From IMG/VR virus record IMGVR_UViG_3300003323_000790, positions 1 to 64,000 of that record: a DNA stretch of 64,000 nucleotides; one strand, given 5' to 3'. This document shows positions 288 to 29,722 of the stretch, one piece after another. The notes under the pieces were generated by a model that was given only the letters and a program-made list of their open reading frames with translations, was not told the DNA's origin and did no database searches. The translations under genes were made by a program, and so were the position numbers. The DNA is from a virus. The stretch's first letter is position 1, and each line of letters begins with the position of its first letter.

Positions 288-686
288 GTGAGCTACGAGA
301 ATCCACGCATCACCCTGACTGACTCGATCATGTCGGCCGTCATTAAAATGTCCGACGGCAATCCGGGCGCCGTCACTGTGCTGACCCAGATCCTGAATCA
401 GGGCGCGGCTATCGATCCGGACGACGCCTTCGGCGCACTCGGCGCTCTCCTGTCCCTGGACACCGAGGATATTTACGGCAGCCGTATCTGGATGCTGTAC
501 AAAGACGTCGCCAACCATAACCTGGTCGACATGCTGGGCTTGCTGCGTGCTGTGCAGCTGGGCTTCTTGGGCAGCGCACAGCTGCAGCACGCTATCGACA
601 ACGGCGCACCGGAAGAAGGCTGGGTCGAGCACTGGGTCGGCAAGGTGAAAGAGCGCCTGCCAGCTTTTGGCCGCGTACCAGCTTAA
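288..686 (+). CDS. conserved phage hypothetical protein
   Basis: AAAGGA SD; MSDGNPGA...IYGSRIWMLYKD pattern typical of phage hypotheticals. Confidence 0.8.
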   Translation: MSYENPRITLTDSIMSAVIKMSDGNPGAVTVLTQILNQGAAIDPDDAFGALGALLSLDTEDIYGSRIWMLYKDVANHNLVDMLGLLRAVQLGFLGSAQLQHAIDNGAPEEGWVEHWVGKVKERLPAFGRVPA

Positions 687-712
687 ACAACCACCCACTG
701 AAAGGAAGTACC

Positions 713-1042
713 ATGCTGAACCAAAACGTAGTTGTCGCCAGCGACGCAAGCCCGTCCCTCATCGCCAAGCTGGCCTCCAAGGGTGTCAATGTGATCAGCG
801 CCGGCCTGAGCCTCGCGGCCGCCTCCTTGGGCCAAGCGCCGAAGGTCAAGCAGCAGAACAAGTGCAACCAGCGCAAGCCTGATCCGGTGCAAGACGCCGC
901 GATCGCACAGCACAACTACCCAATCGAACTGAAGCGGCAAGCCAAGAAAGCCGCCAGCAAGAACATCGGCAAGCACAGCGTCTCGGCGCGCCAGGCCAAG
1001 AAAGTGCGCAAGCTGCTGAAGCTGCACAACGTCCAGGCCTAA
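713..1042 (+). CDS. basic hypothetical protein
   Basis: AAAGGA SD, 109 aa, Lys-rich C-terminus. Confidence 0.7.
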   Translation: MLNQNVVVASDASPSLIAKLASKGVNVISAGLSLAAASLGQAPKVKQQNKCNQRKPDPVQDAAIAQHNYPIELKRQAKKAASKNIGKHSVSARQAKKVRKLLKLHNVQA

Positions 1043-1085
1043 CAACCACCGGCGGCCGCGAGACCGCCCTCACGAAAGCAAAATC

Positions 1086-1448
1086 ATGACCCTGAACCTC
1101 AAAGACCCTGTCACCACGCAGGACGGCACGCCTGTCACCCTCATCTGCAGCGGCCGCGACGAGAACTATCCGGTGATGGGCTACATCGGCGACGCCACGA
1201 CCCTCTCGTTCTGGGATGCCGAAGGCGGCCACAACTCCAGCAATCCCCACCTTGACCTGAAGAACCTGCCGATCAGTGGCGAGGTGTGGGTGGTGGTCTT
1301 GGCTGACGGCACAGCTCTGTACGTAACGGAGGATGGCGCCCGCAGTACGGGAATCCGCATCTCTGCAACTCCGGCGCTGCCCCAGATCAAAGCCGTCATC
1401 CGCCTGCCCTACAGCGTCGAGGCGGGCCACAACGACCTGGAGCCTTGA
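1086..1448 (+). CDS. hypothetical protein
   Basis: 120-aa ORF within co-oriented gene run. Confidence 0.7.
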   Translation: MTLNLKDPVTTQDGTPVTLICSGRDENYPVMGYIGDATTLSFWDAEGGHNSSNPHLDLKNLPISGEVWVVVLADGTALYVTEDGARSTGIRISATPALPQIKAVIRLPYSVEAGHNDLEP

Positions 1449-1453
1449 TCATC

Positions 1454-1654
1454 ATGACACTCGACCAAATCAAACAGGCCGTCTTGGGCGGCAAGGCTGT
1501 CTACGTGGGCAACGAAGCCTACGAGGTGCGGCACAACAACGGCCAGTGGCTCATCGTCTGCACCATCAACAACGACGCCATCGGCCTCACCTGGAAAGAC
1601 GGCGTCACCCTGAACGGCAAGCCGGAAGACTTCTTCGTGAAGGAAGGGCCATGA
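1454..1654 (+). CDS. hypothetical protein
   Basis: MTLDQIK start; ATGA overlap with next gene. Confidence 0.7.
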   Translation: MTLDQIKQAVLGGKAVYVGNEAYEVRHNNGQWLIVCTINNDAIGLTWKDGVTLNGKPEDFFVKEGP

Positions 1655-2010
1655 GCGACAAATTCACCAAGATGCTGGAAGCCGCCGAGAAGCGCGCCAA
1701 GCGCATCAGAGAAAAGGCAGACGAGCAGGTGCGACTTGCACACATCGAACAGGCCGATGCAATGGTCGCCCTGTTCCAAGAGCTGCTAGCCGAGCGCGAC
1801 CTCAACGACACGACGCTCACCTTGCGGAAGATCGACGACTCTACAGCGCACGTCTACATGGACGGCAGTCTGTGGGTCAAGATCGACTGGGTAGTTACGC
1901 GGAATCCAGCAGCGCGAGACACGATCGACTGGATTGATGCCCAGCTGTACGCACCTTGGGTACTGTACATTCCCGACAATACCATCCTCAACCCTCCGAA
2001 GGAGAAATAA
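1651..2010 (+). CDS. hypothetical protein
   Basis: Start reassigned to ATG 1651 (MSDKF) after AAGGAAGG; coupled to upstream stop. Confidence 0.7.
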   Translation: MSDKFTKMLEAAEKRAKRIREKADEQVRLAHIEQADAMVALFQELLAERDLNDTTLTLRKIDDSTAHVYMDGSLWVKIDWVVTRNPAARDTIDWIDAQLYAPWVLYIPDNTILNPPKEK

Positions 2011-2011
2011 C

Positions 2012-2398
2012 ATGATTCTCGCTACCCTCGCCTGCCAAGCGGCTATTCTGGCCAGCTTTGCGCAAGCCAAAGAAAACGCACTGCAAGCCTACCCGCAGCA
2101 TGCAGAGCAGATTCACGCCATCAAGGCCGCGCTGGCGTCCGTTCCGGACGGCTTCAACGCGCAAGTGGTCTACGGTGGCGCCAAGCCCAAGCTGCCCAAG
2201 AGCTGGGGTTACGTGCCGGTCGACTATATCCACCGGGTGACCTACGACGCCGACAAGCTGTGCGCTCTGCCGGAAGACGAGCGTAACCGTATCGTGCGGC
2301 ACGAGATTGGCCACGTATTGGCCCACCTGGACAAGGCCGACACCGTCAACGAAGAGGCCATGGCCGACGCCTACGGCGCCACGCTGGAGGCACCATGA
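2012..2398 (+). CDS. HExxH metallopeptidase-like protein
   Basis: AGGAG SD; IVRHEIGH motif followed by EEAMAD. Confidence 0.6.
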   Translation: MILATLACQAAILASFAQAKENALQAYPQHAEQIHAIKAALASVPDGFNAQVVYGGAKPKLPKSWGYVPVDYIHRVTYDADKLCALPEDERNRIVRHEIGHVLAHLDKADTVNEEAMADAYGATLEAP

Positions 2399-2787
2399 AC
2401 GACCAACTCCAACAGGCCTTGGCCACCATCCTCAACAACACGATCAATGCCGTGCAAGCCGGCGTCAGCTTCCTCTCGGAACAGCTGCCCGACGTCATCC
2501 GTCAGTTGCTGCTCTGGCATGCTGTGCGCAGCGGCGTGTTCTTCACCCTGTATCTGGTGCTGAGCATTGTCTGCGCCGTGCTGGGCTACAAGGGCATCAA
2601 GAAGGCGCTGTCCGATGACAGCTCCGACGGTGACACGGACTTCATTATCTTCCTGTGCGGCGGGATTTCGCTGGTTGGTTCAGTGATCTTTATGTGTCTC
2701 GTTTTCCATACCATCGAATGGCTCCAGATCATCGTCGCCCCGAAGCTGTACCTGATTGAATACGCAGCCAGTCTGGTGAAGAAATGA
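2395..2787 (+). CDS. membrane protein
   Basis: Two hydrophobic segments; GGAGG SD; coupled overlap. Confidence 0.75.
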   Translation: MNDQLQQALATILNNTINAVQAGVSFLSEQLPDVIRQLLLWHAVRSGVFFTLYLVLSIVCAVLGYKGIKKALSDDSSDGDTDFIIFLCGGISLVGSVIFMCLVFHTIEWLQIIVAPKLYLIEYAASLVKK

Positions 2788-3014
2788 ACTTCCAACAAAT
2801 AGCCGAAGCGGCCGACGTGATCAGCGCGGCCTACAAGGAGCTGGAGCAAGCGAAGACCACCAACGTGCGGCTCCAGGATGAAGTAAATCTCACCGAGCAG
2901 CTGCTGGTGAATCTGGTCCACTCTCTGCACGGGCCGTCGGCCAGCCCAGACAAAGTGGTGGAGGCGCTAAACGCGGCACTCAGCCATCTTGCACAAAGAG
3001 GAGTTGGAACATGA
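2784..3014 (+). CDS. hypothetical protein
   Basis: ATGA overlaps at both ends. Confidence 0.65.
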   Translation: MNFQQIAEAADVISAAYKELEQAKTTNVRLQDEVNLTEQLLVNLVHSLHGPSASPDKVVEALNAALSHLAQRGVGT

Positions 3015-3148
3015 CCCACAACCAAGCAGCCACCCTGACCGCCGTTGCGGGCTTCGCAGCCGCAGCCTATCTGGGGACACACGACAACCTGTTTCTGGCC
3101 TTTATGTGCCTCCTCGCCGCCCTGAACATCAATCTCAAGGACAAATAA
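3011..3148 (+). CDS. small hydrophobic protein (45 aa, not in ORF track)
   Basis: GAGGAG SD; MTHNQAATLTAVAGFAAAAYLG...; fills the gap exactly. Confidence 0.6.
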   Translation: MTHNQAATLTAVAGFAAAAYLGTHDNLFLAFMCLLAALNINLKDK

Positions 3149-3149
3149 C

Positions 3150-3404
3150 GTGAACGACAAATTCTACCGCGACACCAAAGAAAACGACCTGCTAGACCTG
3201 CTGATCGATAAGCTACGCTTGAAGAACGACGCCGCCCTCTGCCGCGCGCTGGAAGTGGCACCGCCCGTCGTCTCCAAGATCCGCCATGGCCGGCTGCCAG
3301 TAGGCGACACCATCCTGCTAAGGATGCACGAAATCAGCGACATCCCGCTGCGCAAACTGAAAGAACTGCTGGGCCGCGCCAGCTTGGCCTGCCTTACCAA
3401 ATAA
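3150..3404 (+). CDS. small HTH DNA-binding protein
   Basis: LKNDAALCRALEVAPPVVSKIRHGRLPVG is an XRE-like HTH; resembles a family I recall from Oxalobacteraceae chromosomes. Confidence 0.75.
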   Translation: MNDKFYRDTKENDLLDLLIDKLRLKNDAALCRALEVAPPVVSKIRHGRLPVGDTILLRMHEISDIPLRKLKELLGRASLACLTK

Positions 3405-3415
3405 GGAGACTCGCC

Positions 3416-3922
3416 ATGGGCCTCAGTATTTTCGCGTTCACCAAACTGCAGCCACTGCCGGCTGACCAGCGACAAGCCGTCGACGACGGCGAGATTGACG
3501 GCGTGACATTCTACGATAACCTGGATTTCACCGGCCGTGCAGAAGGTGTTAATTGCGCTCTCGCGTACGTGGAACAGGAGCCGTTTCCGGTCGCCGGCAT
3601 GAGCTACGGCCGCTACGCTAACTGGCGCAACTGGCTGGCCCAAGCCTTGGGCTATCCGCAAGCTACCGGCGGAGGCTACCATCCACCCATGCACATCTAC
3701 GGCATGCTGCGAGATGCCGCCGTGGGTGCGCCGTTTATCGAGCTGGTGTACTTCTCCGACTGCGAGGGCACAATCGGTCCAGTCGTCAGCGCCAAGTTGG
3801 CCAAAGACTTCGACGACTTCGCCGGCAAGCTGGAAGGTGATGCGCGCCAGCTGCACGTCTACGAACAATTCCGCAAGGGCTTTCACTTGGCCGCCGACGG
3901 CGGCGCCGTGAAGTTCACCTAA
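3416..3922 (+). CDS. conserved phage hypothetical protein
   Basis: TAAGGAG SD; FxELVYFSDCEGTIG pattern. Confidence 0.8.
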   Translation: MGLSIFAFTKLQPLPADQRQAVDDGEIDGVTFYDNLDFTGRAEGVNCALAYVEQEPFPVAGMSYGRYANWRNWLAQALGYPQATGGGYHPPMHIYGMLRDAAVGAPFIELVYFSDCEGTIGPVVSAKLAKDFDDFAGKLEGDARQLHVYEQFRKGFHLAADGGAVKFT

Positions 3923-3941
3923 ATCTGAAAGGAGCCACATC

Positions 3942-4445
3942 ATGAATAAAGAAATCCGACTGGGCGTCTACGCCAAGTGCAAACTGACTGACTTCGAAGG
4001 CACCCTGGCCTCCAAGACCGAGATCCTCGGCGGTGCCACACAATACTGCGTGCAGCCGGCGCGCACCGCCAAACTCGAACCGGGCAAGATGCCCGACGGC
4101 ATGAATATCGACTGGCAGAGCCTGGAATATATCAACGATGGCGTCAGCGACGAAGCGGTCGACACCACGCCCGACGATATCGGCCTCGACTGCAAGGTGA
4201 CCGATCGCATTACCGGCCTGAAAGGCACTACGACGCGCCGCATCACATTCCTCAACGGCTGCGTGTACTACACCGTCCAGCCGCCCGGCTACACCAACAA
4301 GGAGACCGGCGCCTTCGTCGTTCCGGACGGCGTGTTCCTGCACCGCGACGTGCTGGTTCCGGACCAGCAGGTGGAAAAGGCGCAGCCGGCGCCAGTAAAG
4401 CGCGCCAACCCCGGCGGCCCGATGCGCCGGCCTGACCAGCGCTGA
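3942..4445 (+). CDS. hypothetical protein with internal duplication
   Basis: Two similar halves (LTDFEGT...QYCVQP and ITGLKGT...YYTVQP); AAAGGAG SD. Confidence 0.75.
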   Translation: MNKEIRLGVYAKCKLTDFEGTLASKTEILGGATQYCVQPARTAKLEPGKMPDGMNIDWQSLEYINDGVSDEAVDTTPDDIGLDCKVTDRITGLKGTTTRRITFLNGCVYYTVQPPGYTNKETGAFVVPDGVFLHRDVLVPDQQVEKAQPAPVKRANPGGPMRRPDQR

Positions 4446-22240: not shown

Positions 22241-22447
22241 GTGCAAGTACAGGTGAACAAAGACGTAGCATGGGAATACATTCAACCGGCACCACTCAAT
22301 AAGAAGCTGCTGCTCCTGACCAAGGACAACCAGTGCGTGGTGGGTGTTTTCAAAGGTGAGCCGTTGCCGGACAACCGCACCTATAAGGCGTGGCAAGGCC
22401 TCCCGGACCGCAACCGGGAAACCGAGCTGGCACTGGGCTACGCATGA
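22241..22447 (+). CDS. hypothetical protein
   Basis: AAGGAG SD, GTG start. Confidence 0.65.
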   Translation: MQVQVNKDVAWEYIQPAPLNKKLLLLTKDNQCVVGVFKGEPLPDNRTYKAWQGLPDRNRETELALGYA

Positions 22448-22854
22448 GCGACCCAAAATTCACAGCCTTGATGGCCAAGCTGCAGCGCAACCCGCTCTGG
22501 TTTGGCCCTCGCGGGTGGACGTGGACGACGCCCGACGGGCAGGTCCAGACGTTAGAGAACATCGCTCGGCAGCTGCCGGGCATGGCCAACCTGCTGTGGC
22601 TCTCGCTGCCGCTGGAGCGCCCAGCCGAGTACGACGCCCGCAATAACAGCGTCTACATGTGGGTGCTAGCCATCGGCGGCACCTCCCATAACGTAAAGCG
22701 CTGGCCGGCCGGAACCTGGGAGCAACTCGCCGAGGGCCTGACCCTGGAAGAGTTTATCGCGCTGCCGGTGCCGCCGGCCGGCAGCACGGCCGACCACCTG
22801 CAACGCCTTGCCCTTATCAAGGAAACCCATGCCAAAGCCAAAACTCACACTTGA
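22444..22854 (+). CDS. hypothetical protein
   Basis: ATGA-coupled start MSDPKF. Confidence 0.6.
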   Translation: MSDPKFTALMAKLQRNPLWFGPRGWTWTTPDGQVQTLENIARQLPGMANLLWLSLPLERPAEYDARNNSVYMWVLAIGGTSHNVKRWPAGTWEQLAEGLTLEEFIALPVPPAGSTADHLQRLALIKETHAKAKTHT

Positions 22855-25177
22855 GCAGGTGATGGAACGGTATCCGTTCCCCTTCGAGCTCAAGCCCAAT
22901 CAGAAAGAGGACATTATCCAGCTGGCCGAGTGGGGCCGCGCGCTGGGCGACCTGCCGGTCGGTTACGGCAAGACAGCGATCGCCACGGCCGTGGCTTTAA
23001 TGCTACAGCCGGACGTCACCGTTGTGCTGGTGCCGCCTATCCTGGTGCCGGACTGGGTGCACTGGCTAAACAGCATCCCGAACATCGGCAGGGTGGTGGC
23101 GTGGGACGGCTCGCCGAAAGTGCGCGCCACCTTGGACCCGCACTCCGACTGGCTGGTCATGTCGTACGGCGTATTCCTGAAGGACGCCGAGCGCCTGAAG
23201 AAGGCGCTTCGAGAGGTCAACTTGTTCACGATTGTGGACGAGTGCTTCCCAGAAGGCACGTCGGTGCTCACACCGGAAGGTGAGCGGCCGATAGAGGCCC
23301 TACGGAGCGGAGATTTAGTGTTGACCTCGGCAGGCCCACAAAGTATCGTTGAAGTATTTAAAAATCTGGCTTTTCAACTTTACACCCTGGAGCTTACGAA
23401 TGGTACTGAGCTTACTTGCACAGGAAATCACCCAATATTTACGGACCTTGGATGGGTTGCCGCACGAGATTGTGAAGGAAGACAGGTACTTCATCACGCT
23501 CAGGTGTGTGATGTGTCAAACGGAGTTCGAAAAGAAGATCTCGCTCATGGCCTATGCGATGCGCCACAAGAAACCCCTTGGGACCGCTTGCTCGAAGACA
23601 TGCAAAGCGCATCGCCGAGCCTTGTTGTACCCAGAAAGCTACAAAGCAGCTGGCCTGAAGATGAAAGGAATTCCAAAGCCGGGTCCGAGAGGGGCGGGGA
23701 AAACTCGGATGCCCCTGAGCGACGCACACCGTGCGGCAGTGTCCGCAACTCTGAAGGCCAAGAGCCACAGGCCGCCCGTGCGGAAGGGGAACGGGACTGG
23801 AATGACTCCAATGGAGGCAAAGTTATGGCCCCTGCTGATCTCTCTGGGGTTTGTGTGGAACCACGCAGTGAGCCTGGGCGCCAAGCACGAGAAGGGGTAT
23901 CCATTCTGCTACAAGCTGGACTTCGCCCTTCCGGACGAGAAGGTGGGTCTGGAGGTGGATGGCCTATCGCACAACCTGATTTCTCGGCAAGCACAGGACA
24001 GGAAGAAAGTCGAGAAGCTGGCGGAGTTAGGGTGGCGCGTGTTTCGTGTCAAGAATTCTCAGGTGGAATCCCTGTCTTCAACCTCCACGTTGCTCGACGT
24101 CATGACTATTATGCCGGAGGAATTCTCGTCCATAATTGCCAGAACTTTAAGAACTATCAGTCCAAGCGGTACATCGAGCTCAAGGCCTTGACCGATGGCC
24201 AAGCGGCCGCGCCGCTCATGATGTCAGGCACCATGCTCTCGTCGCCCGAGGACGCCTACGGCTACGTGAAGCTGACCAACCCGAGCGCCTACACCAGCTT
24301 CCTGCAGTTCCGCAACATCCACGTCGCCGAAGTGGACTTCTTCGGGCGCGTTACGAAGTGGCAGCAGCTGGACCTCATGCAAAAGAATCTGTCCTATCGC
24401 CGCGTACGTCGGCTGAAGGAAGAAGTGCACGCCCACTTGATCAAGCCCCTTGTAATTCCGATCTTCTACGACCTGCCCAAGGAGCACATGAAGCTCTACA
24501 AGGAGCTGATGAACGACCAGATCCTGCTGCTGGATGACGGAAGCAAGATTGATGCCAGCACCGCGCAGCGGCTTTACCACTACTCACAGCAGATCATCAC
24601 CAACTGGGGCTACTTCGCCGACGACCCGACGAAGCGCTCGGCCGTGTTCGACCTGATCGACCAGGTGTGCGAGCAGCTGCGGCTCGGCGAGCCCCCGGTG
24701 CCGGGCGTCGAGGCCGGCCCCGACGCCGAGAAGCTGATCCTCTGGACGATGTACAAAATGACCAGCCGCACCGTGCTGGGCTACCTACAGGAAAAGCTTA
24801 AGCCGCTGGGCAAGGAGGCTGTGGGCGCATGGTCCGAGACCGACAGTCGCAAGGCTGTGGCCGCTTTCATGCGCGATCCGGACACGGTCGGCATGGCCGC
24901 CCAGCCGGGCTCGGTCGGCGCCGGCCTGAATCCGCAGTACGTGTGCCGGGCGATCGGTTACGTCGAGATCCCGACCCGCACGATTGGTTTCATCCAGTCG
25001 TCGGGGCGCATCTATCGCGAGGGTCAAAAGTATCAGCCGCTGGTGTGGCTCTTTGTTGCGCGCGACACCATCCAGGAAAAGCTGCTGGAGAACCTACAGA
25101 CAAACGACGACCTTGTCAATAAAGTTTCCGGCACGAAGCAGGGGATCAGAAATATGATTTTCCCAAATGGAAGATAG
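22829..25177 (+). CDS. SNF2-like SF2 helicase containing an intein
   Basis: Walker A LPVGYGKT; Walker B IVDE|CQ split by intein; SGT; GAGLNPQ; QSSGRIYREGQ. Confidence 0.9.
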   Translation: MPKPKLTLEQVMERYPFPFELKPNQKEDIIQLAEWGRALGDLPVGYGKTAIATAVALMLQPDVTVVLVPPILVPDWVHWLNSIPNIGRVVAWDGSPKVRATLDPHSDWLVMSYGVFLKDAERLKKALREVNLFTIVDECFPEGTSVLTPEGERPIEALRSGDLVLTSAGPQSIVEVFKNLAFQLYTLELTNGTELTCTGNHPIFTDLGWVAARDCEGRQVLHHAQVCDVSNGVRKEDLAHGLCDAPQETPWDRLLEDMQSASPSLVVPRKLQSSWPEDERNSKAGSERGGENSDAPERRTPCGSVRNSEGQEPQAARAEGERDWNDSNGGKVMAPADLSGVCVEPRSEPGRQAREGVSILLQAGLRPSGREGGSGGGWPIAQPDFSASTGQEESREAGGVRVARVSCQEFSGGIPVFNLHVARRHDYYAGGILVHNCQNFKNYQSKRYIELKALTDGQAAAPLMMSGTMLSSPEDAYGYVKLTNPSAYTSFLQFRNIHVAEVDFFGRVTKWQQLDLMQKNLSYRRVRRLKEEVHAHLIKPLVIPIFYDLPKEHMKLYKELMNDQILLLDDGSKIDASTAQRLYHYSQQIITNWGYFADDPTKRSAVFDLIDQVCEQLRLGEPPVPGVEAGPDAEKLILWTMYKMTSRTVLGYLQEKLKPLGKEAVGAWSETDSRKAVAAFMRDPDTVGMAAQPGSVGAGLNPQYVCRAIGYVEIPTRTIGFIQSSGRIYREGQKYQPLVWLFVARDTIQEKLLENLQTNDDLVNKVSGTKQGIRNMIFPNGR
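23243..24136 (+). mobile_element. intein (298 aa) in helicase Walker B, no in-frame endonuclease
   Basis: N-terminal CFPEGTSVLT; block B CTGNHPIFT; C-terminal VFNLHVARRHDYYAGGILVHN followed by Cys+1. Confidence 0.92.
23321..23349 (+). promoter_or_regulatory. intein-internal sigma70-like promoter
   Basis: TTGACC-N17-TATCGT upstream of GGAG (23389) and ATG 23400. Confidence 0.55.
23400..24191 (+). CDS. Vsr/DUF559-like endonuclease nested out of frame within the intein
   Basis: +1 frame relative to helicase; CVMC...CSKTC zinc motif; TPMEAKLW, YKLDFA...LEVDGLSH...DRKK..L..LGWRVFRV. Confidence 0.85.
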   Translation: MVLSLLAQEITQYLRTLDGLPHEIVKEDRYFITLRCVMCQTEFEKKISLMAYAMRHKKPLGTACSKTCKAHRRALLYPESYKAAGLKMKGIPKPGPRGAGKTRMPLSDAHRAAVSATLKAKSHRPPVRKGNGTGMTPMEAKLWPLLISLGFVWNHAVSLGAKHEKGYPFCYKLDFALPDEKVGLEVDGLSHNLISRQAQDRKKVEKLAELGWRVFRVKNSQVESLSSTSTLLDVMTIMPEEFSSIIARTLRTISPSGTSSSRP

Positions 25178-25218
25178 GCTAGAATTCCATTCTCAACTGA
25201 AACACTTACGAGGCAACA

Positions 25219-25731
25219 ATGGTTACCGATAAAGAAAAAGAACAGCGAGCCAAAGAGGCCGCCTGGAACATCGCCGCCCTGGCTGGCTCTCCTGATCTGC
25301 AGGCCTACCGCATGCTGGCTTCCAAGGTGCGCGGCCTGGCTCGACATAACTCCGCGCTGGCGGTATGGGAGATCCAGGACGGCGAGATTTACGTCCGTAA
25401 CCGCTACTTCGTCATCAACGCGGCGGCCACACTGGAGCACGGCATGCGCCTGTTCCTGCGGGAGGAAATGACCCGCGCAACCTTGGAGATCGGCCACATC
25501 CCCACCCGCCTGCCCGGCACCGACTGCTTTGTGTGGGTCCCACGCCACACCGACGCGCGCTTCTGCCCGTCGGACCCGGCGGACGTGACCAGCCACACCC
25601 GGCTCTCAATGGGCATTATGTTCGGCTGCCCGGCGCGCATCGGCACCCTGGTGGAGGGCAAGGAATACCTGACCCTTGCCCGAGACATCGAATCTTACCG
25701 ACAACAGCTGGGAGCATTGGCACATGCCTAA
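25219..25731 (+). CDS. hypothetical protein
   Basis: GAGG SD, 170 aa. Confidence 0.7.
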   Translation: MVTDKEKEQRAKEAAWNIAALAGSPDLQAYRMLASKVRGLARHNSALAVWEIQDGEIYVRNRYFVINAAATLEHGMRLFLREEMTRATLEIGHIPTRLPGTDCFVWVPRHTDARFCPSDPADVTSHTRLSMGIMFGCPARIGTLVEGKEYLTLARDIESYRQQLGALAHA

Positions 25732-28700
25732 TTTCATCTACTACCAAGTCAAGGGTGGTGAAGAGCGCTGGACGGTCGGACCAGCCTCGCAGGTAGAGCG
25801 CATTCGCGACGAATTCAACCCTATGTTCATCACGGCCCTGTCGGTGGCCAAGATGCCTGAAGAGCTGGAGTACGACGAGAAGCTGAAGCTGGCCTACTAC
25901 GGTCCGCTCTATTTCGACTGGGATTCCGAGGACGGCGCCCACGTGATCGAGAAGGTCAACGAGATGCTCGACAACCTCGAAGAGCTAGGCCTGGACCTGC
26001 ATGCCTGCCGGCTCTACGCCACCGGCGGGCGAGGCTATCACCTGGAGATCCCACCCTATCTCTTCATCGACAAAGACCCGTCCAACCGCGGCGTGGTGAT
26101 GCTGCCGGCGATCTACCGCGAAATGGCGCTGGACTTGGCCGTCGACACCCTTGACCTGACGATCTATTCGACCGGGCGCGGCCGCATGTGGCGCCAGCCT
26201 AACGTCGAGCGCCAGAACGGCCGCTATAAGGTGCCGATCACGGTGGACGAAATGCGCTCGATGACCGTCGAGCGTTGCGAAGAGCTGACCTCCAAGCCGC
26301 GCTCCTTGGAAGCACCGACCAAGGCCGAGTTGTGCCTGAAGCTGAACATCAAGTACGAAGAGGCCAAGCAAAAAGTCGAGGCGCTGATGAAGCGTCGCGG
26401 CAAATTCAAGGCCGATCCGAAGGCCAAGGAGAAGGCGAATGGCCTGTCGGTCGAGATGATGCTGGCCGGCCTGGGTATCAAGGAAGGTTCGCACTTCCAG
26501 CAGATCGCCACGCAGCTGGCGATCGTGGCGCACACGGCCGGCTGGTCGGAGAGCGATCTGGTCGAGAAAGCGCAGGGGTTGGTGAACAGCCACCAGAGCG
26601 ACGGCAATCGCTACAACAGTCCGGAGAAGCGCAACAATGAGCTGCGCCGCATGTGGCGCTACATGTACGACAACGTCTGCTACGAATTCAGCATCGGCGC
26701 CCTGAAGGCGCTGATGTCACACTCGGCGCCCGACTTGGACAACATCCCAACGACGCGCGAAGAGCTGGAGCAGACCATCAAGGAAGAGGCGGCGGCCGAG
26801 GCGGAATCGGAAGATCAGGAGATCGACGAATACGCCGACGTCGCCGCCGGCATTTCGCTCACCAAGTACGGCGTGTACATGCAGACCGCCACCGAAGGCA
26901 AGAAGCGCATCTGCGCTGTCTCCTTCGAGACATCGGCGGTGCTGTTCTCCACTGAGTCCGGCCAGATCGTGGCCTTCGAGGCCGAGGTGCTGGTCAACGG
27001 GCGGCCGTCGGGCCGCCAAACCCTTGAGCTGGATGTGTTCTCCGGCCTTGTGCAATTCAATCGCTTTGTGGCCCGCTACGGGCACTCATTCCAAGGCACA
27101 GATCTTCAAGTACGGACGGTTATGATGCGCTTTGTCGAGCAAGCAAAAAAGAAAGGCGAGAGCCTGTACATCGTGAAGCGGGAAGGACTTGACCTCGTCA
27201 ACATCCAGCACCACGAAAACGAACTCTACCGCAAGCCCTTCCTGGTGTGGGCTGACCACCACCAAGTCGTGCTGCAAAAAGAAATCGCCGAGTCGGGCCT
27301 GAACCTCGTCTTCACCGGCTTCCCTGATCCGCAGGGTGAGTTCAAAACCGACCTGTCACAGGCGCCGGTGCTCAAGGAGTGGATCGAAGAGCCTGGCAAT
27401 AAGGAAAAGCTGCGCGACGTGCTGCAGGCGGCGATGACCTGCCAGAAGTCGGAGCTGATCGGCAAGTACATCGGCTGGTATGTGGCCTGCTTCTGGAAGC
27501 CGCTGTTCCAGGCGGCGTACGGCAAGTTCCCGCTGCTGCACGTGAACGGCGCGGCGGGCGCCGGGAAATGTATGGGGTTCAACACTCCGGTGATCATGGC
27601 CGACGGCACCACGAAAATGGTACAGGACGTGCAGGTTGGCGACCAGTTGCTCGGACCGGACGGCGGCGTACGCAACGTGCTGTCGCTGGCGCGCGGCCGG
27701 GAGCTGATGTACCGCGTGACCCCGGTAAAGGGTGACTCGTATGTTGTAAATGCGTCACACATCCTGAGCCTGAAACGTTCAGATCGCTCCTGCCGGCTGT
27801 CGGACGGGACTCAGGTTACCGCGGCAGATGACGTCGTGAACGTCAACGTCGAGGTCTACGCACACAGTTCGGCTGCCGCCCGCAAGGCGTTGAAGGGGTG
27901 GCGCAGCGACGCGGTGGAATTCCACCGCGAGGCAGAAGACCTGCCGCTGGACCCTTACTGGCTGGGCGTATGGTTGGGCGACGGCAAGCACGACCTGCCG
28001 CAGATCACGAAGCCAGCAGATACGAACATGGTGCGCTGGTGGATTGCCCACGCTGAGCAACATGGCCATCTGGTCTCTCGCCATGAGTATGATGATCGCT
28101 GCCCGAGCTGGGCGGTACGCTCTAAGGACGGGCGCTGGGATGCACAAGGCAACCAGTTCACGCAGCGCCTGCAGGCCCTCGGCCTGCTGGGCAACAAGCA
28201 TATTCCGGCGGCATACAAGTTCGCGCCGATGGAAGACCGCTTGCGTCTGCTGGCCGGCCTGATTGACTCCGACGGCTCCCTGGACAAGGCGGGCTACGAC
28301 TGGGTCAGCAAAGACAAGTCACTGGCGGAAGATTTTGCCTTCCTCTGCCGCTCGGTCGGCCTGGCCGCTTATGTCAAGGAGTGCACGAAAGGTATCCAGT
28401 CGACTGACTTTGTGGGCACCTACTGGCGCGTGAGCGTCAGTGGGGACTGCGACAAGATCCCTTGCCTGGACAAGAAGGCGCCGCCACGCAAGCAGGCAAA
28501 GCGTGTGACGGTGACTGGCATCTCGGTGGAGCCTATCGGCGTGGACAACTACTACGGTTTCCAGATCGACGGCGATCATCTGTTCTTGCTGGGCGACTTC
28601 ACGGTCACCCACAACACCGACATGACCAAGTCCTTCTCCTGCTTCTTCTACCACCAGCGCGAGCCGTACTCGACGTCGCCGACCTCGACCGTCTTCTCGA

Positions 28701-29722
28701 TCACCCAGCAGATCTCCAGCACCTCGTCGATCCCCTTCGTACTGGACGAGTACAAGCCGCACGCGCTGCAGGGTGACATGGTCAACAAGTTGCGCGCGAT
28801 CTTCCGAGACAGCTACAACCAGACGATGATGGCGCGCGGCGGCGGCACACGCGAGAACGACGACTACCGCCAGCTCCAGCGCACTCAGCTGTCGGCGCCG
28901 GTGGTATTCATCGCCGAGGCGGCCGAATCCGAGCCGGCCGTCATGGAGCGCGTGGTGCTGGCCACCGTGGTGCCGCCGCCGGCGTCGATGAAGAACACGT
29001 GGCGCGCGCGGTTCCAGCTGTTCCGCCAAAACCGCGAGCTGCTGGGCATCCTGGGCCAGTACCTGGCCGCCAAGGTCGTGCAGTCCTATTCGGTGGACCG
29101 CCTGCGCACGGAGTTCAACGACCTGTACGAAGAGGCTGCCAACACCTACATGCTCAACGCCGACGACATCGAGCGCATGAAGGCCGGCGACCTGGACGAA
29201 GAGCTGTCGCTCAAGGCCAACGCCAAGGAGCGCTCGGTGTACAACCACACGGTGGCCAAGTTCGGATTCCAGCAGTTCAGGAGCCTGATTAACCAACTCT
29301 TGGGACCTGTGCTTGATGACCTGATGGGCGAACTTGAGTCCGGTCTCTACGCGCGCATGTCCGACTTGCAGGCCTCGACCACACCGGAAATTGTCCGCGT
29401 GCTGGAGACGATGTCGCGCATGACCTATGCGACGGAGGACACCCGGCCGGATGCGTTGCGCGAGAACTACGAATATGCGATTGCCGGCGACACCTTGGAG
29501 CTGGACGCTTACTCGGCCTACACGCGTTATCGCATCTTCATGCGCCAGGCTGCCTTGCAGCCGCTCTTCCCTGACGTCTATCCATTCCTGCAGGCGATGA
29601 AGGACTTGGAGGCGTACAAGTCGACGGCGACGGGCGATCACTTGAAGCGGCCGCAGGTGATTGTGCTGTCGATCAACGCGCTGACCCGCGCCGGCGTGCC
29701 GCCATTTAAAGGCGGCAAATAA
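25724..29722 (+). CDS. primase (AEP-like)-helicase fusion containing an intein
   Basis: YFDWD and TGGRGYH AEP-like motifs; Walker A GAAGAGK|T; Walker B VLDEY; GGAG SD before ATG 25724. Confidence 0.85.
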   Translation: MPNFIYYQVKGGEERWTVGPASQVERIRDEFNPMFITALSVAKMPEELEYDEKLKLAYYGPLYFDWDSEDGAHVIEKVNEMLDNLEELGLDLHACRLYATGGRGYHLEIPPYLFIDKDPSNRGVVMLPAIYREMALDLAVDTLDLTIYSTGRGRMWRQPNVERQNGRYKVPITVDEMRSMTVERCEELTSKPRSLEAPTKAELCLKLNIKYEEAKQKVEALMKRRGKFKADPKAKEKANGLSVEMMLAGLGIKEGSHFQQIATQLAIVAHTAGWSESDLVEKAQGLVNSHQSDGNRYNSPEKRNNELRRMWRYMYDNVCYEFSIGALKALMSHSAPDLDNIPTTREELEQTIKEEAAAEAESEDQEIDEYADVAAGISLTKYGVYMQTATEGKKRICAVSFETSAVLFSTESGQIVAFEAEVLVNGRPSGRQTLELDVFSGLVQFNRFVARYGHSFQGTDLQVRTVMMRFVEQAKKKGESLYIVKREGLDLVNIQHHENELYRKPFLVWADHHQVVLQKEIAESGLNLVFTGFPDPQGEFKTDLSQAPVLKEWIEEPGNKEKLRDVLQAAMTCQKSELIGKYIGWYVACFWKPLFQAAYGKFPLLHVNGAAGAGKCMGFNTPVIMADGTTKMVQDVQVGDQLLGPDGGVRNVLSLARGRELMYRVTPVKGDSYVVNASHILSLKRSDRSCRLSDGTQVTAADDVVNVNVEVYAHSSAAARKALKGWRSDAVEFHREAEDLPLDPYWLGVWLGDGKHDLPQITKPADTNMVRWWIAHAEQHGHLVSRHEYDDRCPSWAVRSKDGRWDAQGNQFTQRLQALGLLGNKHIPAAYKFAPMEDRLRLLAGLIDSDGSLDKAGYDWVSKDKSLAEDFAFLCRSVGLAAYVKECTKGIQSTDFVGTYWRVSVSGDCDKIPCLDKKAPPRKQAKRVTVTGISVEPIGVDNYYGFQIDGDHLFLLGDFTVTHNTDMTKSFSCFFYHQREPYSTSPTSTVFSITQQISSTSSIPFVLDEYKPHALQGDMVNKLRAIFRDSYNQTMMARGGGTRENDDYRQLQRTQLSAPVVFIAEAAESEPAVMERVVLATVVPPPASMKNTWRARFQLFRQNRELLGILGQYLAAKVVQSYSVDRLRTEFNDLYEEAANTYMLNADDIERMKAGDLDEELSLKANAKERSVYNHTVAKFGFQQFRSLINQLLGPVLDDLMGELESGLYARMSDLQASTTPEIVRVLETMSRMTYATEDTRPDALRENYEYAIAGDTLELDAYSAYTRYRIFMRQAALQPLFPDVYPFLQAMKDLEAYKSTATGDHLKRPQVIVLSINALTRAGVPPFKGGK
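27569..28615 (+). mobile_element. intein (349 aa) with LAGLIDADG endonuclease in Walker A
   Basis: CMGFNTPVIMADG...VNASHIL...LGVWLGDG...LLAGLIDSDG...YYGFQIDGDHLFLLGDFTVTHN followed by Thr+1. Confidence 0.95.

Follow-up and report, generated by a model that had tools for sequence, protein, structure and literature searches.

Homing endonucleases that are read from another frame than the intein they accompany have been described before, and the element analyzed here, an intein within a helicase gene of a metagenome-derived virus, has to be seen against these cases. According to a preprint by Gosselin, Arsenault and Gogarten (10.1101/2025.01.02.630785), actinobacteriophages carry antisense LAGLIDADG, antisense VSR-like and frame-3 endonuclease VII-like inteins in genes for polymerase, capsid, terminase and thymidylate synthase, with earlier cases cited there (Gorbalenya 1998, Gogarten 2002). 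A second preprint, by Phillips, DeSimone and Gogarten (10.64898/2026.09.14.751524), reports an out-of-frame LAGLIDADG endonuclease in cyanobacterial dnaX together with frame-specific selection. In three further papers, Dassa et al. 2009 (PMC2677866) found Vsr-like or GIY-YIG endonuclease genes between the halves of split inteins, with overlaps of 6-69 bp, Taylor et al. 2011 (PMC3239194) defined the EDxHD homing endonuclease family with I-Bth0305I as its prototype, and Arsenault 2025 (PMC11855218) presented ShiLan, in which an out-of-frame HNH open reading frame (ORF) lies in a stop-free methylase insert. Our locus belongs to IMG/VR virus record IMGVR_UViG_3300003323_000790, which is 80,992 bases long and estimated complete, and whose first 64 kb (64,000 nucleotides) constitute the stretch analyzed here, hereafter the window.

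The window very probably carries a mobile intein in motif II of a phage superfamily 2 (SF2) helicase, the predicted homing endonuclease being a separate gene that lies in the +1 frame over the middle of the intein. The parts of this arrangement are the following, a slash marking the intein junction here and below.

22808..25177, plus strand: SF2 (SNF2-related) helicase gene, one open frame of 789 amino acids (aa) in the ORF list.
23243..24136, plus strand: intein of 298 aa, between E and C of helicase motif II (DE/CQ).
23243..23482, plus strand: N-terminal splicing region (about residues 1-80), matched by Hint_2; the range is our own count on the translation.
23483..24022, plus strand: linker or spacer of the intein frame, stop-free, hydrophilic, matching no family, its DNA constrained in the +1 frame.
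24023..24136, plus strand: C-terminal splicing region (GVRVARVS...YYAGGILVHN), covered by the end of the Intein_splicing profile and by a tblastn C-block match in the helicase frame.
ATG 23400 to TGA 24189-24191, plus strand: predicted homing-endonuclease gene, +1 to the helicase frame, 263 codons plus TGA.

The helicase ORF is recognized by Pfam SNF2-rel_dom (26.8 bits, cut-off 24.9) and by PHROG 62 'DNA helicase' (E 2.4e-50). An initial annotation, made from the letters of the window and a list of its ORFs, had proposed a contiguous 298-aa intein at DE/CQ with all splicing residues, and this is what we find: the junctions read TIVDE/CFPEG...GILVHN/CQNF, with the Cys1 codon at 23243, TGNH in block B, the terminal His-Asn ending at 24136 and Cys+1 directly after it, which are the end residues of a class 1 intein (Cys or Ser at position 1; His-Asn, then Cys, Ser or Thr). 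C1, H63, H297 and N298 are invariant over the 60 inteins that were compared. In the helicase frame, Hint_2 matches intein residues 1-36 with 33.6 bits (cut-off 28.4), and Intein_splicing, at 26.4-29.3 bits and thus under its own cut-off of 35.8, covers both ends of the intein and leaves a large insert unmatched. The middle of the intein matched no Pfam family in the helicase frame, in agreement with the earlier remark that this part resembles no domain. Searched as a profile, the 60 inteins have as their top solved structure 6qaz, the split intein gp41-1 (E 2.5e-20; cyanophage-like by the title of the PDB entry), ahead of other mini-inteins, and the gp41-1, MtuI RecA and DnaB inteins are all found at E 2.5e-20 to 1e-9. 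gp41-1 is a fast split intein used as a tool, and it is said to be one of those from Dassa's fractured genes.

No stop interrupts the helicase frame anywhere in the element, and host and intein can hence be translated as a single precursor. The last ~83 nt of the N-terminal splicing region overlap the start of the nuclease ORF, and the C-terminal splicing region shares all of its DNA with the 3' part of that ORF. The G+C content of the intein is 0.547 vs 0.598 for the window, with just 4.3% of stretches of the same size as low, and in the N part of the intein that is not overlapped the G+C at third codon positions (GC3) is 0.52 vs 0.82 in the extein. Both values fit an acquisition of the intein from elsewhere.

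In the product of the +1 ORF, the CxxC...CxxxC zinc motif (N-terminal) and the Vsr/DUF559 domain (C-terminal) are present as had been claimed, with a linker containing RKGNG between them; DUF559 (PF04480) is matched with 31.3 bits (cut-off 20.6, E 2e-7), and the E, D, H and D of a catalytic domain of this EDxHD-like type are conserved. Two segments were delimited.

23505..23603, plus strand: zinc motif of the nuclease (C36, C39 ... C64, C68); C36, C39 and C68 are invariant, and C64 is present in at least 90% of 61 relatives.
23952..23999, plus strand: predicted catalytic core E185-x-D187-G-x-S-H191 ... D200; E185, H191 and D200 are invariant, and D187 is present in at least 90% of the 61.

Altogether, 19 columns are invariant over the 61 nucleases, including C36, C39, C68, G130-N131-G132, E185, H191 and D200, and the window nuclease retains all of them; 11 further columns are nearly invariant in the family. 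A profile of the 61 sequences matches the DUF559 structure 3hrl (E 2.7e-10), and the catalytic core aligns with the E-x-D-G-x-x-H core of that protein. This link came with the profile, a search of solved structures with the single nuclease sequence having given no match. The zinc part has a weak profile likeness to the zinc-ribbon protein eL24 (E 0.0014). No Pfam NUMOD match was found in the N-terminal region, where the conserved zinc motif and a basic linker stand in that place. The record of 80,992 bases has no second copy of the nuclease.

The openness of the helicase frame over the nuclease gene is not what its codons would produce by chance. Among 2000 synonymous shuffles of the window nuclease ORF, which kept its protein and codon usage, the helicase frame acquired 8.9 stops on average, none reaching the observed 0 (0/2000). 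The same layout recurs in relatives. A tblastn search of GenBank phages with the +1 protein gave 43 records, and in the three whose reading frames were checked (Pseudomonas phage MR14, Vibrio phage 159E43-1b and Vibrio phage 1.088.O) the homologous ORF lies +1 inside the annotated helicase gene, the frame of which is open. No close DNA relative of the window locus was found among the phage records. A scan of viral contigs with the single nuclease protein returned nothing, and relatives were recovered only by alignment queries: an alignment of four nucleases retrieved 80 IMG/VR loci which, with the three isolate phages and the window, make up 84 sources. In 83 of these the nuclease is +1 to a frame with 0 stops over the match, the third frame having 7-23 stops, and the N block of an intein is found in the stop-free frame of all sources except L082 and the contig-truncated L021 and L077. 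When distinct nuclease ORFs were shuffled, 64 of 65 had 0 stops in the intein frame, vs 4.8-14.8 from shuffles, and at most 4 of 2000 shuffles equalled this. A further 72 loci came from scans of metagenomes and genomes, of which 23 duplicate sequences already in the set. The 49 distinct ORFs that are new comprise 43 overprinted ones, 3 exceptions and 3 that have 0 stops but reach the edge of their contig; the scan of prokaryote species genomes contributed 3 loci only, all on short contigs of metagenome-assembled genomes. The overprinted layout is thus found in 107 of 114 distinct nuclease ORFs, down to ~27% nuclease identity, so that the conservation of the +1 ORF across homologues, on which the initial annotation had made its proposal depend, is borne out. 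Such a recurrence of the same +1 layout across the family cannot be explained by compensating sequencing errors.

The hosts of these elements are helicases. In host ORFs from 36 representatives of the 84 sources, Intein_splicing was matched in 35, Helicase_C in 24, ResIII in 21, DEAD in 12 and SNF2-rel_dom in 9. The distinct junctions have the DE/ site in 93 of 101 cases and Cys1 in 101 of 101. Taken together, these counts indicate that the element is specialized on the coding sequence of the Walker B motif (motif II) of helicases. No intein-less allele of the window helicase was found when viral contigs were scanned with the C-extein, a result that is no evidence of absence. In three sources (L064-L066, host ORF of 1390 aa) the best C-block match lies ~2.6 kb downstream; L064 may be the single scanned host ORF that matches Hom_end/LAGLIDADG and, if so, its host would contain a further intein.

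Standard annotation passes over the nuclease. In all 30 rows listed for the 43 GenBank phage records, the feature annotated under the nuclease match is the host gene only, as helicase, hypothetical or 'coil containing protein'; examples with the nuclease gene unannotated are MT104474.1 32570-33184, OZ196825.1 29611-30279 and MG592463.1 45382-45972. As none of these 30 rows annotates an endonuclease, the homing nucleases of an entire family escape standard gene calling.

Selection was then compared frame by frame over 167 pairs of sequences with 70-97% nucleotide identity. The median ratio of nonsynonymous to synonymous substitution rates (dN/dS) is 0.333 in the nuclease frame vs 0.623 in the intein frame, amino-acid identity is greater in the nuclease frame for 162 of the 167 pairs, and the differences at nuclease codon positions 1, 2 and 3 amount to 5912, 8777 and 12268, respectively. 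Because such pairs are phylogenetically non-independent, and because dN/dS is biased in overlapping frames, where the silent sites of one are constrained sites of the other, a model-free codon-position test was added. It used a clade whose intein has 289 aa, represented by 18 distinct sequences without gaps. In both exteins, and likewise in residues 1-90 and 271-289 of the intein, variation among the codon positions is highest at helicase position 3; over residues 91-270, the maximum is at helicase position 1, that is, nuclease position 3, in 11 of 12 windows of 15 codons, the exception (196-210) peaking at helicase position 3. This pattern implies that the ends of the intein are constrained as intein and its middle as nuclease. 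At its 5' and its 3' end, the nuclease gene shares DNA with real splicing blocks. In the window itself, the two exteins have a GC3 of 0.82 and 0.835; the intein has 0.44 when read in the helicase frame, and the nuclease ORF reaches 0.674 when read in its own, which shows that the codon-usage signal follows the nuclease frame. That both frames stay open had been observed at the outset; the shuffles, the dN/dS comparison and the codon-position test add that both readings are kept by selection.

As regards the spacer, its Kyte-Doolittle hydropathy in the window is -1.02, which does not differ from stop-free synonymous shuffles (z score -1.12), and the spacers of the family are rich in G, S, R and E with a median hydropathy of -0.82. 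Extra selection for a hydrophilic or disordered spacer was considered and rejected: against stop-free shuffles the median z is 0.24, with 2 of 63 values below -2 and 3 of 63 above +2. The G/S/R/E make-up consequently needs no selection beyond the avoidance of stops.

Two signals upstream of the nuclease, both in the N-terminal part of the intein, bear on its expression.

23387..23390, plus strand: GGAG, likely ribosome-binding site, 7 nt before ATG 23400 and within intein codons.
23321..23349, plus strand: promoter-like TTGACC-N17-TATCGT, a 9-of-12 consensus match whose function is not supported.

The GGAG reported at that spacing is present, and GGAG-N7-ATG recurs in L004, which belongs to the clade nearest to the window. 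A start codon stands between the upstream +1 stop and the zinc motif in all 64 distinct relatives (64/64), and GGAG or GAGG precedes the start by 5-9 nt in 31 of the 64, vs ~9 expected from a background of 3.9% in the same loci. On the other hand, the promoter that the initial annotation attributed to the nuclease does not stand out from chance in the window, for although it is the sole match in the 3.1 kb of 22300-25400, shuffles give 0.8 +/- 1.0; L004 has no promoter-like match. Across the family, 23 promoter-like sites occur between the intein start and the zinc motif in 21 of 64 loci, vs 6.3 expected from the extein density, an excess that is suggestive only, the stretch being lower in G+C (0.471 vs 0.536) and the comparison uncorrected for G+C or relatedness. 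Given the enrichment in Shine-Dalgarno (SD) sequences and the weak promoter, we take translation from an internal ribosome-binding site on the mRNA of the replication operon as the likeliest mode of expression of the predicted nuclease.

The 3' end of the gene sets the window apart from its family.

24125..24128, plus strand: lost family stop; the intein Leu codon is CTC, and the +1 frame reads TCG.

Of 63 distinct inteins, 62 contain the end of the nuclease ORF, which in 42 of them lies 8 nt short of the last intein base, and the window is the sole exception. The usual stop is a TAG made of the TA of CTA, TTA, GTA or ATA (Leu, Val or Ile) and the G of the next Val codon, the TAG-forming codon being four residues before the intein end; it is found in 67 of 81 loci (not deduplicated). 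With CTC in place of a TA-ending codon, the family TAG is lost and the ORF runs on into the C-extein, over 21 codons, to TGA 24189-24191, 55 nt inside it. The change is silent in the intein frame, and it extends the nuclease by a tail of 21 residues, for which block G of the intein and the C-extein supply the codons. The stop ~55 nt into the C-extein, which had been listed as a feature of the architecture, is therefore real but is the outcome of one lost stop codon and no part of the design. The loss may be neutral or a first step of decay. In the relatives with the usual TAG, a block G codon that is unremarkable in itself, at nt 10 to 8 ahead of the end of the intein, is thus fixed by the overlapping nuclease gene.

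Four members of the nuclease family depart from the overprinted layout. L154 is a true fractured gene, in which N-extein and N-intein (1525..2325), nuclease (2222..2980) and C-intein with C-extein (from ATG 2860) are separate ORFs; the N and C parts share one frame, the nuclease is +1, the former spacer frame has 28 stops, and the overlaps are 104 and 121 nt. The region concerned (1525-3393) lies on a metagenome contig of 40% G+C, with frame offsets as in the overprinted family. L152 has its Vsr domain in frame within a 310-aa intein at VDE/C and lacks the zinc motif. Its 1292-aa ORF (434-4312) looks UvrD-like as judged from its motifs, and appears to hold two inteins, the first near the P-loop, as read by eye from the translation. 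L153 (3-1202) would be a typical member but for a single stop in its spacer frame; its contig is 1.2 kb long and, according to the contig name, has a coverage of 3.3. The stop reflects either a recent break of the gene or an error in the reads. Finally, L082 (= L134, 2752-3405) is a free-standing copy of 217 aa that overlaps the start of a terminase-like gene by 11 nt with no intein nearby, and its 8 stops, vs 8.8 expected from shuffles, make it a natural negative control.

In a maximum-likelihood tree built by a quick search from 109 nuclease rows, with support from the Shimodaira-Hasegawa-like approximate likelihood-ratio test (SH-aLRT) only and with no outgroup, each of the four is a lone leaf whose nearest rows are overprinted, in four regions of the tree and with 4 state changes. 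Most branches around them have SH-aLRT values of 83-92; L152 is on a long branch (2.02), and L154 is of odd composition. The root can be occupied by no more than one of these scattered leaves, so that at least three would descend from overprinted ancestors, if the tree is right. By this tree, the overprinted form looks like the common and durable state and the others like rare offshoots from it, and not like a passing intermediate. A bolder proposal, to which we would give slightly less than even chances, is that a large phage element, composed of intein and nuclease gene and directed at the DE/C box of helicases, had the sense +1 overprinted layout as its ancestral and long-lived state, with the fractured, in-frame and free-standing forms derived from it: decay of the spacer frame or indels would yield fractured forms as L154 and in-frame forms as L152, and free-standing copies as L082 would be escapes from the overprinted element. 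If true, the overprinted layout supplies the contiguous precursor that is missing from the 2009 gene-breaking model, and a spacer of ~150 residues would have been kept open for very long solely by synonymous choice in the overlapping gene.

Our preferred reading of the window, a mobile intein with a separate +1 homing endonuclease gene, combines what the sequence displays with predicted steps. The precursor has a complete HINT splicing domain, between whose two parts lies a spacer of roughly 150-180 residues, stop-free, hydrophilic and matching no family, and the intein would splice out and restore DECQ. The nuclease would be translated alone from GGAG-N7-ATG (23400) on the helicase operon mRNA and, in co-infection, would cut intein-less helicase alleles at or near the site coding for DE/C, after which repair would copy in the intein together with the nuclease gene (homing). 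The spacer frame is held stop-free by synonymous codon choice in the nuclease.

Several points weigh against this reading. Splicing, expression and cleavage are predicted from sequence for the window element and its relatives alike, and the dN/dS comparison carries the dependence among pairs and the bias given above. The founding EDxHD structure, 3r3p (catalytic domain of I-Bth0305I), is matched weakly (E 0.081) by the nuclease profile. The initiation signals lie inside conserved intein codons of related sequences, so their recurrence is not independent of constraint on the intein, and the promoter-like site is at the level of chance. The lost stop with its 21-residue tail could mark the start of decay and, no intein-less near relative of the helicase having been found, current mobility of the window copy is not supported.

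The last two points lead to an alternative, namely that the window holds a decaying relic, a vertically inherited de facto mini-intein whose +1 nuclease gene is unused and starting to degrade. Loss of the family TAG and the 21-codon run into the C-extein are unique among the 63 distinct inteins, no near relative is at hand as a homing target, and the record contains a single copy of the nuclease. Against this, the ORF is intact over 263 codons with all 19 invariant columns, GC3 tracks its frame (0.674 vs 0.44), its SD-ATG is retained as in L004, and the lost stop does no more than add a tail; we consider a relic distinctly unlikely. The initial annotation had favored another view, in which the locus is a short-lived intermediate on the way from a canonical in-frame to a split intein, with the nuclease uncoupled from the helicase by an internal sigma-70 promoter. 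Part of this has been strengthened, since the kinship to the Vsr-like nucleases of fractured genes that it invoked is seen in the gp41-1 match of the splicing domain and in the fractured relative L154, the family also includes the in-frame L152, and the 23 promoter-like matches in 21 of 64 loci exceed expectation. The transitional character is the part that fails: with 107 of 114 distinct nuclease ORFs overprinted and four exceptions that are scattered lone leaves, at most one of which is at the root, the overprinted state appears old, stable and dominant. As to the promoter, the window has 1 match vs 0.8 +/- 1.0 expected, L004 none, and the family excess is uncorrected for G+C and relatedness. 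An intermediate of this kind is in our opinion unlikely.

Two further explanations dispense with an independent nuclease gene. A ribosomal +1 frameshift inside the intein could produce a fusion of N-extein, N-intein and nuclease with no start of its own, and both frames are indeed on one mRNA, 33 of the 64 relatives being devoid of a strict Shine-Dalgarno match. Such a fusion is very unlikely in view of the start codon found in each of the 64 distinct relatives, of strict SD sequences three to four times above expectation, and of the free-standing L082 and fractured L154, which both start at their own ATG. Alternatively, two compensating indels of assembly or sequencing could mask an in-frame endonuclease domain. 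We found nothing in favor of this, the record itself being a virus contig from a metagenome; a total of 107 distinct sequences, assembled independently and including isolate phages (Pseudomonas MR14 and two Vibrio phages), repeat the +1 offset and the open helicase frame, which leaves an artefact with a negligible chance. The mobile intein with its overprinted nuclease is accordingly the interpretation that we retain.

Downstream of the helicase, the next large gene (25676-29722, plus strand, 1348 aa) contains a second intein, which is canonical and has an in-frame LAGLIDADG endonuclease (Hom_end_hint E 8.8e-20, LAGLIDADG_3 E 5.1e-5). It sits after ...GAAGAGK/C and terminates with ...THN/T, and two intein designs are consequently found ~1.5 kb apart in one phage.

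The most useful new points of this analysis are the natural series of four arrangements, the kinship with gp41-1 and the lost stop that explains the run into the extein. Having overprinted, fractured, in-frame and free-standing forms in one nuclease family makes the routes between contiguous and split inteins testable on real relatives. The locus is in addition a natural case of dual coding in which one frame needs only to be open, which is useful for the calibration of tests for overlapping genes. For practical use, the family offers a gp41-1-like splicing domain and nucleases that target a very conserved helicase motif.

How does this element compare with the systems described so far? The initial annotation had not decided whether its exact architecture was already reported; the general design is, in 10.1101/2025.01.02.630785 and 10.64898/2026.09.14.751524 and, as cited there, in Gorbalenya 1998. 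For a Vsr-like endonuclease read from the sense strand in the +1 frame of a contiguous helicase intein, a literature search outside subscription journals brought up no paper; the supplementary tables of the preprints may list such cases. In ShiLan, a hidden endonuclease ORF likewise occupies another frame of an insert that the host reads through, and the same question of translation arises; its endonuclease is HNH and the insert is without splicing domain, whereas in the window a complete HINT domain flanks the overlap. Like I-Bth0305I, the window nuclease goes together with a self-splicing phage element, ends in a Vsr-like catalytic domain with conserved E, D, H and D, and has its DNA-binding region at the N-terminus. 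I-Bth0305I, however, resides in a recA group I intron and has two NUMOD repeats, while the window nuclease overprints an intein and has the CxxC...CxxxC zinc motif, and the family is closer to the DUF559 structure 3hrl (E 2.7e-10) than to the I-Bth0305I structure 3r3p (E 0.081).

The fractured genes of Dassa et al. 2009 resemble our locus in their Vsr-like nuclease, in their phage hosts of DNA metabolism and in the 3' end of the endonuclease overlapping the downstream part of the intein. They differ from it in that the window helicase frame is without stop, the intein is contiguous with predicted splicing in cis and the endonuclease lies wholly inside the intein ORF; a host split into two ORFs is what defines a fractured gene, and the window has one ORF (22808..25177), L154 being the member of the family that is so divided. 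The defining traits of a non-canonical intein, an endonuclease ORF inside the intein in another frame with the intein frame uninterrupted, are all present in the window. Its likeness to the inteins of the two preprints extends to the contiguous element, the splicing domain in the host frame with a separate endonuclease ORF over the same DNA, the stop-free host frame and the selection favoring the endonuclease frame in the overlap. Unlike the non-canonical inteins reported there, the window family is Vsr/DUF559-like, on the sense strand and always +1, and it occupies motif II of phage SF2 (and one SF1) helicases with at least 107 distinct members. The window locus is thus the sense +1, Vsr-like, helicase-motif-II variant of the dual-coding inteins already described.

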